A stretch of DNA of 64,000 bases from Coriobacteriia bacterium. Its GTDB lineage: Bacteria; Actinomycetota; Coriobacteriia; WRKU01. Made by a program: the position numbers and the translations under genes. The DNA lies in the NCBI GenBank assembly GCA_009777935.1, contig WRKU01000006.1, positions 7,249 through 71,248 on the forward strand, written 5' to 3'. Under the pieces are notes generated by a model. The model had not been told where the DNA came from. It saw only the letters and a program-made list of their open reading frames with translations, and searched no databases. Positions 1,603-64,000 of the stretch are shown here, piece by piece (position 1 is the stretch's first letter; every line of letters begins with the position of its first letter).

Positions 1603-3057
1603 CTATTCGTCCAGCTCGGCGGTGTATAGTAACACCGGCAGGCCAATAAATGACTCGGTACCGCCGCGCGGGAACTGCTGGCGCACGACGCCTTCGAGCA
1701 CCATCGTCGGAAGGGTAACCGTCACGGGGCGAAAGCCCTGTGTGCGCAGCTCATCGTATGCTTCAAGCTGAGTCATACCCAGCACATCAGGCACTGTTGC
1801 TCGATTATCGGAGCCGTTCGAGATGAGAAGCCCGACTGACTCCCCTGCCTTGATGAGCGCATCGCGTGCGATGGGCATCTGCGCCACAACGACGCCTTGC
1901 GGTGTCTCGCTGTCCACATAGAGATACGTGACGACTTCAAACCCTGCGTTTTCAATCTCGATAGTGGCGCTTTCAACTCGCATGCCGACAACATTTGGCA
2001 CGGCAACGTCGGTCGTCGACGAACCACGCGATACGAGATACTGCACGGGACTACCGGGCATGATGAGCGTACCGGTTGAGGGCGTTTGGATGACGACTTC
2101 ATCGATGCGCCCAAACGGGGCCGAGCCAAAATAGACGAGCGGCGTAAAACCGGCATCGACAAGTACGGTCTCGGCATCGTTTGCCGAAAGCCCCATCACG
2201 CGCGGCATGGGCACCGGCACCGTAGGCGAGCCCTTGACCACAAGCACCGCAACTGTCGAGCCGGCCGGAACGTACGAATCACCGAGGGGAAGCTGCCCGA
2301 GAATCTCACCATCAGGAACGATAGGGTCATACGTGACAACCTCTTCGAGGACAAGACGGTTGGCCGTGAGTATCTCGCGTGCCTCCTCAGGGGTTAGGCC
2401 GGTGAGATCGGGTACCTGCGTCTCGCGCGATTCTCGCGCAACGGTAAGCGTTACCGGTGAGCCACGCGGTACCGAACGGTCAACGCGCGGATCCTGTGCC
2501 AGCACGACACCCGGCGCAACGTTGGCATTCTCCTGTTCGAGCACGCGGCCTACCGTCAGCCCCGCCTCTTCAAGCTGCTCGGTCGCCTGTGGGGTTGTCA
2601 GACCGATGAGGTCAGGTACGGTTACAAATCCCCCGCTGAAAAAGACAAAGTACGAGAATACGGCCGCAACGACAGCCAGGCCGAGCAAGGTGAACAAGAT
2701 TGGTTTGACGAAGTCCTTGGGTTCGGCGGTGATGCGGCGTGTGTCCTCAAGTGTGTCAAACTGCGCGAGATGTTCATCGATAAGCTGGTCGGTATCATCG
2801 TTTTCGGTGAGAAACCAGAAGTCGTCGTCGTTGATGACATGACCGGCCGGTACTTCGTGACGAAGCTGGGTAAGATGTCGAGCAATCGACGCCTCACGCG
2901 CCGCATTCGCCGTCAGCTCAATGGGTGTCAACTCTTCCGTTGCTCCTCGCGGGGTAACGTTGCAGGTCTGCTGAGGCAACGCAAGCTGCTCGGCAGGGTC
3001 GAGTGCGGGAGCCTCGGGATCGGGCTCAATCTCGCCTATAAATCGGCGGTTTAGCAC
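1603..3057 (-). CDS. PASTA-repeat membrane protein without kinase domain
   Basis: One TM helix, then about five VPD/NLxG...A...L...G PASTA repeats; GTG start at 3057 overlapping the gatA stop is inferred. Confidence 0.85.
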   Translation of the reverse strand: MLNRRFIGEIEPDPEAPALDPAEQLALPQQTCNVTPRGATEELTPIELTANAAREASIARHLTQLRHEVPAGHVINDDDFWFLTENDDTDQLIDEHLAQFDTLEDTRRITAEPKDFVKPILFTLLGLAVVAAVFSYFVFFSGGFVTVPDLIGLTTPQATEQLEEAGLTVGRVLEQENANVAPGVVLAQDPRVDRSVPRGSPVTLTVARESRETQVPDLTGLTPEEAREILTANRLVLEEVVTYDPIVPDGEILGQLPLGDSYVPAGSTVAVLVVKGSPTVPVPMPRVMGLSANDAETVLVDAGFTPLVYFGSAPFGRIDEVVIQTPSTGTLIMPGSPVQYLVSRGSSTTDVAVPNVVGMRVESATIEIENAGFEVVTYLYVDSETPQGVVVAQMPIARDALIKAGESVGLLISNGSDNRATVPDVLGMTQLEAYDELRTQGFRPVTVTLPTMVLEGVVRQQFPRGGTESFIGLPVLLYTAELDE

Positions 3058-58923: not shown

Positions 58924-59017
58924 GGAGAGCTGACCGAGTTGGCTGAAGGTGCTCGCCTGCTAAGCGAGTGTGCGGCTTAGAACCGTACCCGGGGTTCGAA
59001 TCCCCGGCTCTCCGCCA
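58924..59017 (+). tRNA. tRNA-Ser(GCT)
   Basis: GGAGAGC acceptor, CTCGC-CTGCTAA-GCGAG, long variable arm, GCCA end. Confidence 0.97.
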
Positions 59018-59159
59018 CAATTAAATCCTATAAGCGCACCAAAACCTTATTAGTGAGGTTATAGGATTTAGACTCACTTCACTGGCCAAAGCTATCATCC
59101 AATAAGTGCCAAAGTTCATAGTAGATATATGGCAAAGTTCATAGTCTTGTGGTATCTTA

Positions 59160-60443
59160 TTGATGGTGATGCAAATGAACAATGATTACTTGAAACGTAT
59201 CTCTGACGAAAAACTAGCCCTTCTTCTCCGTGCAAAGGGAGCAGTCCTGATTGAAGGTCCAAAATGGTGTGGAAAAACACGTTCTGCTGAAGAGTTGGCG
59301 GAGAGCGTCTTGTATATGCAAGACCCCGACACATCCAAAGAGAACATCCTCACGGCTCAAGTTAAGCCCTCTTTGCTTCTTGAGGGAAAAACTCCTCGTC
59401 TGTTAGATGAGTGGCAAGTGGCTCCTGAACTCTGGAATGCAGTACGATTTGCGGTTGATAAACGCCGAGCAAAGGGGCAGTTCATTTTGACTGGCTCTGT
59501 CGTCCCGACAAAGACTGATGATATGCATACTGGGACAGGACGCATCGCAAGAATGAAAATGAGAACGATGTCTTTGTATGAAACAGGAGACTCAACGGGT
59601 GAGATTTCTTTGGGGGCACTTTTTGACGGTGCAAAAAACATAGAGGGTCAGTCCAACCTCACAATTGATGAAATCGCTTTTGTTCTCAACCGTGGCGGTT
59701 GGCCAGAGGCAGCAAAAGAGTCTGATGAGAAAGTAGCATTGACCGTTGCAGCTGACTATCTTGAAGCAGTAATAAACGAAGACATTTCCAACGTTGATGA
59801 CGTCGAAAAGAACCCCGACCGAGTAAGAGCACTTATACGGTCAATATCTAGAAATATCTCCAGCGAAGCGCGAGCGACCACGATATTGAACGACATGATT
59901 GCCAACGATGAAGCTCTATCTCGTGCAACCGTTGATCAATATATAGATGCTTTGAAGAAGCTCTTTGTGATAGAAGATTTACCCGCGTGGAGTGCCAAGC
60001 TTCGGTCAAGAACTGCAATCCGCACAACCGCCAAGAGACACTTTGTTGATCCATCTATTGCTGCTGCGGCACTTAGGGCAACACCAAAGCGTCTACTTTC
60101 TGACCTAAAAACATTCGGTTTTCTATTTGAATCGCTTTGCATCAGAGATTTAAGAGTTTATGCGGAAAGCATCGATGGTAGTGTATTCCATTACCGTGAT
60201 AAAAGCGGCCTAGAAGTTGATGCGATTATTCAGCTTGCAGACGGTCGCTGGGGAGCTGTGGAAGTGAAATTAGGTGCCGGAGAAATCGAGGATGCCGCTG
60301 CAAACTTGCTTAAGCTCCAGCAGATAGTCAATACAGAAAAAATGAATAAACCTTCATTTTTGATGGTGCTCACAGGCACAAAATATGCCTTCCAAATGAA
60401 AAACAGTGTATGGGTAGTTCCGCTCGCCTGCTTAAAAAACTAA
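59160..60443 (+). CDS. AAA_14 ATPase with DUF4143 domain
   Basis: GPKWCGKT, LLDEWQ, ILTGS, KRHFVDPS, EVDAI..AVEVKLG. Confidence 0.92.
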   Translation: MMVMQMNNDYLKRISDEKLALLLRAKGAVLIEGPKWCGKTRSAEELAESVLYMQDPDTSKENILTAQVKPSLLLEGKTPRLLDEWQVAPELWNAVRFAVDKRRAKGQFILTGSVVPTKTDDMHTGTGRIARMKMRTMSLYETGDSTGEISLGALFDGAKNIEGQSNLTIDEIAFVLNRGGWPEAAKESDEKVALTVAADYLEAVINEDISNVDDVEKNPDRVRALIRSISRNISSEARATTILNDMIANDEALSRATVDQYIDALKKLFVIEDLPAWSAKLRSRTAIRTTAKRHFVDPSIAAAALRATPKRLLSDLKTFGFLFESLCIRDLRVYAESIDGSVFHYRDKSGLEVDAIIQLADGRWGAVEVKLGAGEIEDAAANLLKLQQIVNTEKMNKPSFLMVLTGTKYAFQMKNSVWVVPLACLKN

Positions 60444-60459
60444 CCAAGGACGAATAACA

Positions 60460-61320
60460 GTGAACACTAAAATTTACTTGAAAAAATTCGCCTCAATATG
60501 CAAAAGAGGAACATACGCTGATTTTAACAAGCTCTGCAGACAAAAGGGCAGCTTTATTCCTGCAAAACTATACAAATATTCAACTCTCAATCCGTGGGTT
60601 ATTAAAAATCTTCAACGCAAACAGATATACCTTAGTAGTCCCGAGGACTTTAATGATCCATTCGATACTTTTAACGTGGGTCATGAACTGCAAGAATCGG
60701 CGCTAAAGCGGCTAGAGATAATGACGGGCATTCCACTATCAACACTTCTAGACGATAACCGAAAAGAGCAATTCGGAGAGGTTATCAATGACGGGTACAA
60801 AGAGCATCCAGGTTTTAGGAATGCGACTGGAGTCTGTTGCTTTACAGAAAAATCACCTGACAACATTATCATGTGGAGCCATTATGCTAATCAACATAAA
60901 GGAATTTGTTTAGAATATGATTTTGCAAAGCACAATGATATTATTCGCAGCTTATATCCTGTACTCTATAGAGACAAATACATTATTAGAAAGCTCCCTG
61001 AAAAACCAAAGGAACATATTCTCTACGATAGAGACCAGGTTATGCTTCTCCTAATCCAGGCTCATCTAGTTAAGTCTACAGAATGGGAGCATGAAAAGGA
61101 ATGGCGCTTTCTTAGGCATATTAATGATGGGAATCGTGAAATTAATATTGCGCTTAATCCAACTCACATATATCTCGGGCTCAATATTGATAAGCTACCA
61201 GATGAAGAGCAGTCAATTTTGAGACACCTGAAGCAATTTGCAGAAAAGAATTATATCCCTATAAGTCAAATGAAACGTTCCAAAAATGAGTACAGCCTAT
61301 ACCCCACCAAGTCAGAATAG
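60460..61320 (+). CDS. DUF2971 domain protein
   Basis: LYKY, FNDPFD, MWSHYA..HKGICLEY, K..EW.HE.EWR. Confidence 0.88.
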   Translation: MNTKIYLKKFASICKRGTYADFNKLCRQKGSFIPAKLYKYSTLNPWVIKNLQRKQIYLSSPEDFNDPFDTFNVGHELQESALKRLEIMTGIPLSTLLDDNRKEQFGEVINDGYKEHPGFRNATGVCCFTEKSPDNIIMWSHYANQHKGICLEYDFAKHNDIIRSLYPVLYRDKYIIRKLPEKPKEHILYDRDQVMLLLIQAHLVKSTEWEHEKEWRFLRHINDGNREINIALNPTHIYLGLNIDKLPDEEQSILRHLKQFAEKNYIPISQMKRSKNEYSLYPTKSE

Positions 61321-61361
61321 ACATCCTTTTCGAAATTTTTGAATTTGCACGAAACAATACA

Positions 61362-61450
61362 AACACCATACGGTTGATGCGGGATATGTAATAATGTTTA
61401 CAGTTAATCGTGTTTGTGGGAGCCAGATCCTATAAGCGCACTAATGCCAC
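61362..61450. repeat. 89-bp inter-cassette repeat, copy A
   Basis: 10 mismatches versus 62547-62635. Confidence 0.92.
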
Positions 61451-61481
61451 CTTTCGTACGGTTATAGGATTTGAGCTCACT

Positions 61482-62477
61482 TTACTTGCCTATCCTATAT
61501 TTACGCCCCTTGTTCTCTCCGACTGCTTCCAGCAGTCCCATCTGGCTGAATTTGACAAGATACTTCTTGACGCTGGCAGGCGATTTATTTGTGAGAAGTT
61601 GAGCTCGGTAATTCGTGATCTCACCGTTTCGTTCTAGATAACCAGCGATTTGTTCGAGAAAGTCCAGTTCGCTCTTAGAGAGTTTATCGGTATTTATATC
61701 GGGAAATATATCGGTAACTTTATGAACAGGCAGTTCACTTAGTGCCTGATAGATAGCATCAAGCATGAACTCGATAAATATCCCTGAATCAGCTGAGTTT
61801 CCTGAAGCAGCTAAGACATCATAGTAGCCCTGCTGATTCTCATGGACTACGGTTTCAATTGGAAGCCATGCGAAAAGTTCATTCCATTCAGACAAGATGA
61901 GTGTCTGCCATAGTCGCCCAATACGGCCATTGCCATCCATGAAGGGATGGATGAATTCAATTTCGAAATGAACTATTGAACTCTTGATAAGTGGATGGAG
62001 ATCGGTAGTTTTTGCCCAAGTGAATAAATCAGCAATAAGTTTAGGTACGAACTTCTGGTTAGCACCTGCATGGATGAGAGCGTCACCATCGAAAACTCCT
62101 ACACCTGCACTGCGGAAATATCCGGAAGAATCTATGAGCTGTTCTGTCATGTACTTATGCGCTTGCAAAAAGTCTCTCTTAGAATAAGGATCAAACTCCA
62201 GTAGATGCTCGTAGGCTTCATAAGCATTTTTGATTTCTTGAATTCCTGTTGGTTTTGCAAGAACCCGCTTGCCATTGATAATATCGGTCACTTGGTTAAG
62301 CGTTAAGGTATTGCCTTCAATAGCTGCTGATGACTGAATGGAGCGCAGTCGATTTGCTTTACGCAAGCGCAAATTACGGGCATACTCACCGGAGCCTTGC
62401 AGCTCGCCAACAATTTCGGCAACTTTGGCTACTAAATCCAATGCTTTGGGAGTAACCGTATAGGTTGGGGTTTCCAT
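61482..62477 (-). CDS. Fic family protein with C-terminal winged HTH
   Basis: SAAIEGN, HPFMDGNGRIGR. Confidence 0.95.
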   Translation of the reverse strand: METPTYTVTPKALDLVAKVAEIVGELQGSGEYARNLRLRKANRLRSIQSSAAIEGNTLTLNQVTDIINGKRVLAKPTGIQEIKNAYEAYEHLLEFDPYSKRDFLQAHKYMTEQLIDSSGYFRSAGVGVFDGDALIHAGANQKFVPKLIADLFTWAKTTDLHPLIKSSIVHFEIEFIHPFMDGNGRIGRLWQTLILSEWNELFAWLPIETVVHENQQGYYDVLAASGNSADSGIFIEFMLDAIYQALSELPVHKVTDIFPDINTDKLSKSELDFLEQIAGYLERNGEITNYRAQLLTNKSPASVKKYLVKFSQMGLLEAVGENKGRKYRIGK

Positions 62478-62546
62478 AGTACCCAGTATACAATATATCG
62501 GTACTTATATCGGTATTTTTCATTACTAAACTCCGCTTCAAGCAAC

Positions 62547-62635
62547 AACGCCATGCGGTTGATGTGGGATATGTAATAACATTTACAGCTAATCGTGCTT
62601 GTGGGTTCCAGATCCTATAAGCGCACTGATGCCAC
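62547..62635. repeat. 89-bp inter-cassette repeat, copy B
   Basis: Matches 61362-61450; 62549-62574 is identical to 63366-63391. Confidence 0.92.
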
Positions 62636-62802
62636 AGCCCTGTAAAGACTTACCACTTCAAACTGCCATCATGCTCAAACACACTCATGGTGAGAATGCC
62701 TTCATTATCACGAAACGGCTTCATTACTTCGTACACTAAAGTTGTATATATTGCATTGTACTCCAATTAGGCATACAATAGGAGTATATTAAACAGATTG
62801 GA

Positions 62803-63057
62803 ATGGCTATGAATGCTCCAGCAGCAAAAGCAAGATTAAATGTTAATCTCGACAGTGACCTTAAACAAGAGACCGCTCAAGCGCTCGATGAGCTCGGTCT
62901 AGACTTCACCACTGCTATTACCGTCTATTTCAAGCAGATTGTAGGTAAGAGAAGAATTCCTTTTGAGATATCTGCGCCTCGATACTATTCAATCGAAGAA
63001 GTTGCCGGCCATAATTGGCGTGATGGTCTCAGTGGAATTGATGACGAATGGGAGTAA
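62803..63057 (+). CDS. RelB/DinJ family antitoxin
   Basis: LNVNLDSDLK...LGLDFTTAI...RIPFEI. Confidence 0.9.
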   Translation: MAMNAPAAKARLNVNLDSDLKQETAQALDELGLDFTTAITVYFKQIVGKRRIPFEISAPRYYSIEEVAGHNWRDGLSGIDDEWE

Positions 63058-63350
63058 CATACAAGGTACAGTTTACTGACTTATCACGCAAAGATTTTGA
63101 TAAGCTCGATGGCAGTCAGAAGAAGCAGGTTCTCAAATCGTTGGTCAAAATTGAAGAAGGTGGAATGAATGTTGGCCAATCTTTGCATGGAAAGTTGTGG
63201 GATTGCCGAAAGCTCAAGCACAAAAAACTGGGGCTCCGTGTCATTTTTCGTCAGTCCGATTATGGAATTGAATTGATTGAAATCGTGACCGTCGGTAAAC
63301 GAGAAGATCATGAAGTCTACGACATTGCTGTTGCGAGATTGGGAAGGTAA
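63048..63350 (+). CDS. RelE/ParE family toxin
   Basis: YKVQFT..DFDKLD, RKLKHKKLGLRVIF, VGKRED..VY; overlaps the antitoxin. Confidence 0.85.
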   Translation: MGVTYKVQFTDLSRKDFDKLDGSQKKQVLKSLVKIEEGGMNVGQSLHGKLWDCRKLKHKKLGLRVIFRQSDYGIELIEIVTVGKREDHEVYDIAVARLGR

Positions 63351-63390
63351 ACTTGCTTGAGTAAGCGCCATGCGGTTGATGTGGGATATG

Positions 63391-64000
63391 TTATACCGCT
63401 ATACGCTTTCCTGCAAAAGGAGCTAGTATCGCGGCTACGATGCACAGGCCGGCGGCGACGTAGAAGGCCGGTTGGAAGCTCCCGGTGAGGTCAAACAGGG
63501 CACCTGCAACGAGCGAACCAAAGATGCCGCCGGCCCCATAGGCGGTGAACATCACGCCGTAGTTGGTGCCAAGCGTCGCCGTACCAAAGTGAGTTGCCGT
63601 CAGCGCTGGAAAGATGGCGAGGTTGGCACCGTAGAGCGCACCGATAAACACCGCCAGCACTACCAGTGGCGCAAGTGCGCCGACAAAACCGAGTACACAC
63701 ATCGCTATTGCCTGACCGATAAACGCAATGAGCATCGTCCGTGTTGCTCCAATAGTGTCGAGGAGCGCCCCGGCGATGAGTCGGCCGGCCGCATTACCGA
63801 TAGCGAGCGCCGCTACCAGCAGAAAACCGAGGTTCGCGCCCGGCACCTGCACCGCCGTCACGCTCGCCATTACGCCGATAATCATTAGCCCTGCAAAGGC
63901 CGCACAAGCAAAGGCAACCCACATCTGGTAAAAGCGTACCGTTGATACCATATCTTTTAACGAATGGCCTGTGGTAAGGTTCGCCTGTGTCCCCACCCCC
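63391..64000 (-). CDS. MFS transporter, oxalate/formate antiporter-like (5' end outside window)
   Basis: GNAAGRL..G..LD.IG, FP...A..FG...G.NYG..FTAYG. Confidence 0.88.
   Translation of the reverse strand, partial: GVGTQANLTTGHSLKDMVSTVRFYQMWVAFACAAFAGLMIIGVMASVTAVQVPGANLGFLLVAALAIGNAAGRLIAGALLDTIGATRTMLIAFIGQAIAMCVLGFVGALAPLVVLAVFIGALYGANLAIFPALTATHFGTATLGTNYGVMFTAYGAGGIFGSLVAGALFDLTGSFQPAFYVAAGLCIVAAILAPFAGKRIAV

Follow-up and report, generated by a model that had tools for sequence, protein, structure and literature searches.

The locus described here lies in a 64,000-nt stretch (the window) of contig WRKU01000006.1 from the Coriobacteriia bacterium assembly GCA_009777935.1, which comprises 1.1 Mb in 21 contigs and is 86% complete. 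Between a tRNA-Ser(GCT) gene and the stop codon of a minus-strand major facilitator superfamily (MFS) transporter gene is a low-GC islet of 4.4 kb (59018-63395; GC 0.35-0.49 versus 0.53-0.62 in the flanks), in which three gene modules are set apart by an 89-nt repeat, here called YZ (Table 1). No recombinase gene was found inside the islet. A first-pass annotation, made from the letters of the window, had read the islet as integrase-free modules of AAA/DUF4143 with DUF2971, Fic and RelB/RelE genes, with toxin-antitoxin-like or putatively defensive cargo. These gene calls hold in Pfam and NCBIfam, and PADLOC places the first three genes among candidate or known anti-phage systems. Judged by these assignments, the PDC-S01, PDC-S31, SoFic and RelBE cargo is that of a putative small defence and addiction island.

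Table 1. Features of the islet and its borders, in window coordinates
Feature	Position	Strand	Basis or remark
tRNA-Ser(GCT)	58924..59017	+	ARAGORN, Rfam; 3' end is the proposed attB left half
Proposed crossover dinucleotide, terminal CA of tRNA-Ser(GCT)	59016-59017	+	
7-nt spacer CAATTAA, tRNA CCA to first Z half-site	59018..59024	+	
Left-edge 43-bp palindrome	59025..59067		Z half-site 59025-59043, centre ACCTT, inverted half-site 59049-59067
Third, weaker Z-like core near left edge	59097-59106		
Cassette 1 gene 1, AAA_14 + DUF4143 ATPase	59160..60443	+	Pfam; PADLOC PDC-S01 candidate, 2.1e-70
Cassette 1 gene 2, DUF2971 protein	60460..61320	+	Pfam; PADLOC candidate PDC-S31
Y-mid of repeat copy A	61362..61426	+	Conserved 65 nt; right end of cassette 1
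Copy A 44-bp palindrome	61427..61470		attP-like P-CA-P', central CA 61448-61449; outer motif AGATCCTAT / AAATCCTAT at positions 16-24 of each half
Cassette 2, Fic-domain protein	61482..62477	-	Pfam Fic 2.5e-17; PADLOC SoFic anti-phage model 4.2e-41
Repeat copy B	62547..62635	+	Y-mid and Z half-site (62612-62630), without inverted partner
CA after copy B Z half-site	62633-62634		Z half-site ends GC-CA; attR-like P-CA-B'
Cassette 3, RelB/DinJ antitoxin	62803-63057	+	Pfam, NCBIfam RelB_DinJ
Cassette 3, ParE/RelE-like toxin	63048-63350	+	Pfam 22.0 bits, just below the 23-bit cut-off
Y(30)	63366..63395	+	First 30 nt of Y only; overlaps MFS stop codon 63391-63393
MFS transporter gene, 3' part	63391..64000	-	400 aa in full; host GC; flank, outside the array

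A repeat search gave the YZ unit at 61362-61450 (copy A) and 62547-62635 (copy B), 89% identical with 10 mismatches, and the islet is its single locus in the 1.1-Mb assembly. The Z core, ATCCTATAAGCGCAC, is present three times in the islet (from 59025, 61427 and 62612), the last 18 nt of the unit recurring at the left edge (59025-59042), and the first 30 nt of Y have three copies, one of them at the right edge (63366-63395). Downstream of Z, both the left edge and copy A have an inverted arm, which copy B lacks. The first-pass annotation had already described the 89-bp repeat, the left edge with Z only, the right edge with the start of Y only and the inverted arm in two copies, and all of these are present; the 11-6-11 symmetry that it ascribed to Z has to be replaced, the true symmetric unit being a 19-nt half-site, ATCCTATAAGCGCACYAAT, within a 43-44-bp palindrome. 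Over all copies, including those from the related contigs described below, the half-site faces an inverted copy across 5-6 nt six times, forming palindromes of 43-44 bp (two of the six in the window), and stands alone eight times, window copy B among them, with RCC(A) directly following it. With their two inverted half-sites, these palindromes have the build of an attP-type quasi-palindrome (~40-50 bp). In the alignment the repeat unit extends from AAC to CCA; its ends are sharp, mean column identity is 80%, and its least conserved part is the 9 nt just before AGATCC. Exactly in this block, one related contig (L045:1535-1552) carries a 9-nt tandem duplication, GTTGGAGCG/GTTGGAGCC. The idea that degraded repeat sequence survives at the right edge was rejected, 326 of 1000 shuffles aligning equally well, and comparison by eye of Y with the C-terminus of the Firmicutes recombinase gene described below gave no convincing similarity.

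A 24-nt pattern from Y retrieved six metagenome contigs (L041-L046), in all six of which Z follows in register ~60 nt downstream and the resulting ~90-nt site borders wholly different cargo. The cargo includes ArsR, an SBF-family (ACR3-like) transporter and a methyltransferase (L041); AAA_14/DUF4143, YcxB, lipoprotein-like open reading frames (ORFs; read from sequence), isochorismatase, DUF3795 and DUF3788 (L042); a relaxase, NikA/MobC, a ParB-like protein, AAA_13 and PfkB (L043); a KAP NTPase (L044); another AAA_14/DUF4143 protein, recognized by eye (L045); and IS3 (L046). These contigs and the window, seven loci, share no DNA beyond the repeat, the Z palindrome and the tRNAs. Eight full repeat copies were 78-91% identical in pairwise comparison, the window pair (88.8%) falling inside the between-contig range; since the two window copies are no more alike than copies from different contigs, they appear to be separate arrivals from a shared pool rather than products of local duplication.

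All four arrays with a visible proximal end begin at the CCA of a tRNA-Ser (GCT, CGA, GGA and one tRNA truncated where its contig begins). Besides the window, these are L041, which starts after tRNA-Ser(GGA), L042, which starts after tRNA-Ser(CGA), and L045, which starts within a tRNA 3' end. L042 and L045 have the 7-nt spacing from CCA to palindrome too, as does an internal position of L041. Synteny with the window (DinG-exonuclease, YkuD, tRNA-Ser(CGA)) is seen in L042, which nevertheless holds other cassettes, and in a genome of the same family (G001) tRNA-Ser(GCT) is followed by unrelated DNA, representing an empty site. The repeat was not found scattered off module boundaries, and relatives show no single invariant block. 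Together with the site family with differing cargo, the syntenic contig and the empty site, this agrees with the separate cassettes read in the first-pass annotation, and supports the conclusion that the modules behave as separate recombinase-less cassettes bordered by a conserved site.

Exact searches of one genome per species gave 12 loci for a 20-mer of Y, none of them followed by Z and all chance matches in coding sequence or tRNA clusters, and 0 loci for a 19-mer of Z. The repeat gave 0 blastn matches in 400 further genomes of the class and was absent from the plasmid and phage collections; in viral contigs there was one chance coding match for Y and 0 for the palindrome. Two other tRNA-associated arrangements were encountered. 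In a genome of the same class (L039; G057:C3, ~1900-2330, minus strand), at least three tandem copies of ~25 nt of tRNA end plus ~130 nt lie downstream of tRNA-Ser(GCT), and resemble att-type scars of another sort, in which tRNA sequence is copied. In a genome of the same order (L007; G014:C9, ~1314-1990), AAA_14/DUF4143 gene fragments that are 73% identical in nucleotide sequence to the gene of window cassette 1 stand directly after tRNA-Leu(CAG), and resemble the remains of a cassette that decayed at a different tRNA.

Y contains an in-frame ...MRLMRDM-stop. In L043 (413-447, minus strand) a PfkB-family ORF reads into Y and terminates there, and in the window the MFS stop codon is inside Y(30), in the stretch 63391-63395. 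The MFS protein has an ortholog in G001 (70% identical, covering query residues 8-397 of 400), than which it is 5 residues longer.

Sites built on the same half-site motif were found beside genes for large serine recombinases (LSR). A pattern consisting of both outer motifs of the Z palindrome and its CAY/RTG blocks matched nine loci in the species genomes, versus ~0.1 expected by our own arithmetic. Two of these (L060, L065) look like AT-rich coding chance matches, and five (L059, L061, L062, L064, L066), from Clostridia-type metagenome-assembled genomes (MAGs), form one family with a site composed of an inverted half-site, ACTCAG, ATCCTATAAGGACACTC, a 10-nt centre and an inverted half-site. 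Firmicutes genomes thus also have the ARATCCTATAAG..CAC motif of Z downstream of an LSR gene, joined there to the CCA of tRNA-Pro. In L061 the site starts 45 nt past the stop codon of a gene for a 600-aa Resolvase+Recombinase+Zn_ribbon_recom+DUF4368 protein. In L066, an 8-kb locus of a Clostridiales MAG, an intact recombinase gene is followed by a hybrid site, the same half-site joined to an opposite-strand tRNA-Pro(GGG) exactly at CCA (in tRNA sense, ...CTCGGAC-CA-TGCAGAGTGTCCTTATAGGAT), and 3.9 kb on there is a complete palindrome beside the 3' remnant of a second recombinase gene; this locus shows tandem accretion at tRNA-Pro(GGG), with one newer and one older element. The other half of the L066 palindrome, ATCCTATAATTACACTCCGAC-CA, is identical to the tRNA-Pro acceptor end at 8/9 of positions 2-10 from the centre, and the exact centre of the 44-bp site of the tRNA-Pro family is the CA of CCA.

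Homologues of this recombinase were present in 17 of 301 genomes of the class (E<=1e-40). The two best, 45% (G007, gene at L070:1471-3183) and 44% (G009) identical over their full length, are both from the window's own order, and in both the recombinase gene stops ~50 nt from a convergent tRNA-Gly that is joined at CCA to GAGTGTCCTTAAAGTAC; these were the only loci with a tRNA among the 25 of the homologue search. A protein-based scan collected 48 recombinase loci from Coriobacteriia and many Firmicutes. Downstream DNA was read in 37 of the 48, and tRNA genes were scanned for in 46, two short contigs being omitted; a tRNA was present in seven of the 46, in every case encoded on the other strand from the recombinase gene, with fusion at CCA in L095 and L096 (tRNA-Gly) and L098 (tRNA-Met).

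For comparison of the islet sites with tRNA ends, positions were counted outwards from the central CA, its C being position 1. Positions 16-24 of both copy A halves (P and P') read A(G/A)ATCCTAT (ARATCCTAT), and the T-loop of tRNA-Ser(GCT), GAATCCCCG (GAATCC), occupies positions 11-19 from the centre, so that the ATCC shared by copy A and the tRNA is displaced by 5 bp, the outer motif being the one farther from the centre. With this 5-bp shift, identity is 4/9 for tRNA-Ser (core ATCC) and higher in the sister site families, at 7/9 for tRNA-Met and 5/9 for tRNA-Pro. For the Listeria A118/LI integrase, Rutherford et al. 2013 (PMC3783163) showed that the motif of the zinc-ribbon domain (ZD) takes up positions 16-24 in attP and lies 5 bp closer to the centre in attB; the islet site and the proposed attB have the distal motif placed in this way. 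The central CA, which also ends the tRNA, is present in copy A and in L043; the 43-bp proximal palindromes have no central CA. The left junction of L041 is a clean hybrid, B-CA-P', reading tRNA-Ser(GGA)...GC-CA-CC-ATTAGTTCGGCTATAGAAT, and the other end of its ars cassette reads Y-mid-Z...AC-CA-TCCC. These comparisons support a match between the islet site and the predicted attachment sites of an LSR clade that targets tRNA CCA ends, and most likely the site belongs to a serine recombinase supplied from elsewhere rather than to a Xer or integron system.

We consider it probable that the islet grew by accretion of recombinase-less cassettes through a serine recombinase acting in trans, in the manner of the staphylococcal cassette chromosome (SCC). 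The modules would have been laid down one by one at the CCA end of tRNA-Ser(GCT) by an LSR whose gene lay elsewhere, perhaps on a helper element since lost or missing from the assembly. Because a gene for it is absent from the genome, the recombinase would have to come from such a helper, as with SCC cassettes devoid of ccr. The proposed attB comprises the T-arm and acceptor end of the tRNA, with crossover at the CA of the encoded CCA. Each module would end in Y-mid plus a Z half-site, serving as the P half, and some would begin with an inverted Z as the P' half. The P-CA-P' arrangement of copy A would then be the abutment of the right end of cassette 1 and the left end of cassette 2, resembling a complete attP, and a module next to DNA without a P' half would leave P-CA only, of the attR type, as at copy B. 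Since copy B is P-CA followed by unrelated DNA, cassette 3 presumably had no P' half when cassette 2 arrived. Newcomers would enter at the tRNA and displace older modules outwards, as in L066. We infer from this arrangement that an LSR built this particular array and in what order the cassettes arrived, and the cassettes may still be mobile.

A wider and more tentative proposal, which we hold to be possible though somewhat short of an even chance, is that a widespread DUF4368-type LSR clade reads the universal tRNA T-loop and the encoded CCA as attB and cuts at the terminal CA, that recombinase-less cassettes with attP-type sites only stack at tRNAs across unrelated phyla, and that Y-mid and the arrangement of CCA, 7 nt and palindrome allow repeated capture, of which ordinary serine integrases are incapable. 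It would cover integron-like, defence-rich arrays, with that of the small-genome member of the Coriobacteriia described here and sister sites in Firmicutes.

Several observations weigh against accretion by a serine recombinase. The left edge, like those of L042 and L045, consists of CCA, 7 nt and a complete 43-bp palindrome and is no simple attL, and at the right edge Y(30) stands by itself against the MFS stop codon, with no att hybrid. A serine integrase needs no arm, so that the equally conserved 65-nt Y-mid is left without a place in the model. No serine integrase is known to recombine attP with attL, and accretion would therefore require relaxed specificity, which has been reported for Ccr. 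In the centre-proximal part of Z the match to the tRNA-Ser acceptor end is CCA alone (8/9 for tRNA-Pro), and the ZD-motif match for tRNA-Ser is just 4/9. A search for the attL-type pattern (TCCGCCA... tRNA end + P') returned three matches, all at tRNA-less, apparently coding loci and attributable to chance. No resolvase-domain gene was found in the window or in the 86%-complete assembly (0 PF00239 matches), nor in the visible parts of the six metagenome contigs (ORF calls and Pfam, larger ORFs), and no LSR gene was found beside a site with the GCGCAC half-site variant of the islet's own family; an LSR beside the element was seen only in the sister site family (L061; G007, G009).

The unfitting edges, Y-mid and the centre of Z keep alive a model, in our judgement an unlikely one, in which a tyrosine integrase acts in trans and cassettes accrete as in cis-mobilizable elements (CIMEs), with crossover in the variable block just upstream of Z. 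The core site would be GTGCTTGTGGGA - GCCAGA - TCCTATAAGCGC, an imperfect 12-6-12 inverted repeat. Such a crossover fits the outer edges, the left one holding only sequence to its right (Z) and the right one only sequence to its left (Y); it would fall where the 9 nt before AGATCC are least conserved and where L045 has its 9-nt duplication, and the 7-nt spacer after CCA in three arrays would be the overlap region. Set against this, the genome has no integrase beyond XerC and XerD and none was found in the visible parts of the related contigs, the two arms of the 12-6-12 repeat agree across the copies at just 6-9 of the 12 positions of the left arm (read from the alignment), and the 35 nt that should lead from Y(30) to such a crossover are missing at the right edge. 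A tyrosine integrase would also leave unaccounted for the 43-44-bp palindrome and the motif identity with LSR-adjacent sites.

Still less probable is a single decayed island, the repeats of which are internal duplications or regulatory or terminator elements. The palindromes could be hairpin terminators, the left-edge one having a folding z of -3.6; copy B and seven other copies have no hairpin, however, and neither RNA covariation (0/23 predicted pairs with compensatory changes) nor a promoter or terminator site overlapping the repeat was detected in the corresponding scans. Decay of one island also does not explain why the identical type of site borders unrelated cargo in six other contigs, being 78-91% conserved amid unrelated flanks. 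At a permissive threshold Rfam returned tRNAs only, and a tRNA-like fold of the repeat was ruled out by eye and with ARAGORN.

The first-pass annotation had seen a dif-like core in Z and inferred integron-like or Xer-driven accumulation, and neither the dif-like core nor an integron or Xer mechanism was upheld. XerC and XerD, the only tyrosine recombinases in the genome (NCBIfam) and the only site-specific recombinases found in the assembly, would in that case treat Z as if it were a dif site, the mode known from integrative mobile elements exploiting Xer (IMEX) and from pdif modules. A search of the genome for dif-type sites gave one candidate, C5:18840-18867 (ATGTCTGATAA-TGTATG-TTATGTGAATT), which at <=3 mismatches has one copy in its own genome and one each in 6 of 14 same-order relatives and none in 46 genomes of other orders, with 0 matches for the reversed control; its single-copy, order-restricted occurrence argues that it is the chromosomal dif of the lineage. 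Read as 11-6-11, Z of copy A matches this dif at 13/22 arm positions (7/11 + 6/11), copy B at 12/22 and the left-edge copy at 9/22. Among islet 28-mers, 18 of 8702 score >=13, copy A itself included, so that the match is no better than chance. At the centre copy A matches dif at 0/6 positions, and strand exchange with dif depends on the central region, as established for IMEX. The arrays lie at three different tRNA-Ser genes and dif on contig C5, the sites are in direct orientation at the tRNA-Ser genes and do not alternate as in plasmid modules, and the conserved symmetry of 19-5/6-19 exceeds the arm of a Xer monomer. We regard action of host XerC/XerD on Z as very improbable.

An integron-type array without integrase (cluster of attC sites lacking integron-integrase, CALIN) has a cassette-like layout, toxin-antitoxin and defence cargo and homogeneous repeats to commend it and is hardly credible here, the genome having no IntI, the repeat being conserved along its whole length and not at the ends alone, without RYYYAAC/GTTRRRY boxes by eye, the left edge holding 18+ nt of repeat, the last repeat being truncated and the array being anchored at tRNA genes. 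Readings of the IS200/IS605, Tn7 and oriT/relaxase types were dropped on unfit geometry and the absence of Y1 transposase, rve and relaxase domains from the 86%-complete genome.

Of the known systems, those nearest to the islet are composite SCC islands that contain ccr-less cassettes and defence cargo, and the site-specific accretion of CIMEs with integrative conjugative or mobilizable elements. Composite SCC islands, ccr-less pseudo-SCC elements and tandem mobilisation of anti-phage defences alongside SCCmec have been described (10.1101/336396, PMC11470126, PMC6222049). As in the islet, SCC cassettes are stacked one after another behind a single conserved gene, at its 3' end, with a repeated attachment sequence at their borders, many have no recombinase of their own and rely on an LSR in trans, and their cargo includes defence and ars genes. 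The islet differs in that its target is the CCA end of tRNA-Ser and not rlmH, that no ccr-like gene is present in the genome or the seven loci, that the nearest recombinase-bearing relatives have a DUF4368-type LSR and not CcrAB/C, and that the boundary site is a conserved unit of 90-135 nt including a 65-nt extra part. CIMEs have lost their integration genes and kept their att sites, form tandems where a tRNA or housekeeping gene has its 3' end, and can be mobilised in cis or trans (PMC5704250); the islet resembles them as a tandem of elements without integration genes at a tRNA 3' end, whereas its repeat shares with the tRNA only CCA and the displaced ATCC and not the 3' end of the target gene. 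The same 2017 review (PMC5704250) has serine-recombinase integrative mobilizable elements integrating within genes and tyrosine-recombinase ones at tRNA ends.

With the rules for serine integrases (PMC3783163) the islet shares an attP-like quasi-palindrome of ~44 bp, a 9-bp distal motif at 16-24, recurrence of this motif 5 bp further in within the proposed attB and, at copy A, a candidate non-palindromic central dinucleotide. It departs from them in that the motif match in tRNA-Ser is ATCC (4/9), and in that the arrays need integration beside an earlier element, which canonical phage integrases do not carry out. IMEX elements and Acinetobacter pdif modules are likewise integrase-free with short recombination sites, and XerC and XerD are present here; unlike them, the islet has direct repeats with a 19-nt half-site, its Z is no more dif-like than chance and its arrays lie off dif. 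In the tycheposons of Prochlorococcus, also tRNA-anchored islands, successive integrations push older elements inward and leave degenerate remnants (10.1101/2020.12.28.424599); tycheposons differ in carrying tyrosine recombinases and in being separated by partial tRNA copies. A literature search outside subscription journals and supplementary files found no account of tRNA CCA ends as targets of serine recombinases or of cassette arrays built by such enzymes there.

If the proposed serine-recombinase accretion is right, the islet would be a cassette-capture platform comparable in its working to integrons and SCC islands, with a serine recombinase and tRNA ends as its basis, and it would explain how very small genomes without integrases collect and exchange defence and addiction genes. 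It would also supply a rule for finding such arrays (tRNA CCA followed by ARATCCTAT..CAC half-sites), and serine recombinases specific for tRNA ends, with their defined 44-bp sites, would join the candidate enzymes for genome engineering.

Past the MFS gene the contig is again low in GC and carries an AAA_14/DUF4143 gene (C6:71843-73207, approximately 64595-65959 in window numbering), the product of which is 88.6% identical in amino acid sequence to that of the tRNA-proximal cassette of L042; the palindrome of L042 is absent there. In G001 the MFS ortholog is on the 5' side of tRNA-Ser(GCT). With low-GC DNA of the array type on both sides of it, the host-GC MFS gene appears embedded between array-type DNA, and a rearrangement or capture event around this gene is likely. 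Other low-GC islands (GC <0.46) occur elsewhere in the genome, for example at C1:22751-31500, C3:29501-42000 and C4:63001-76500, some of them at contig ends.

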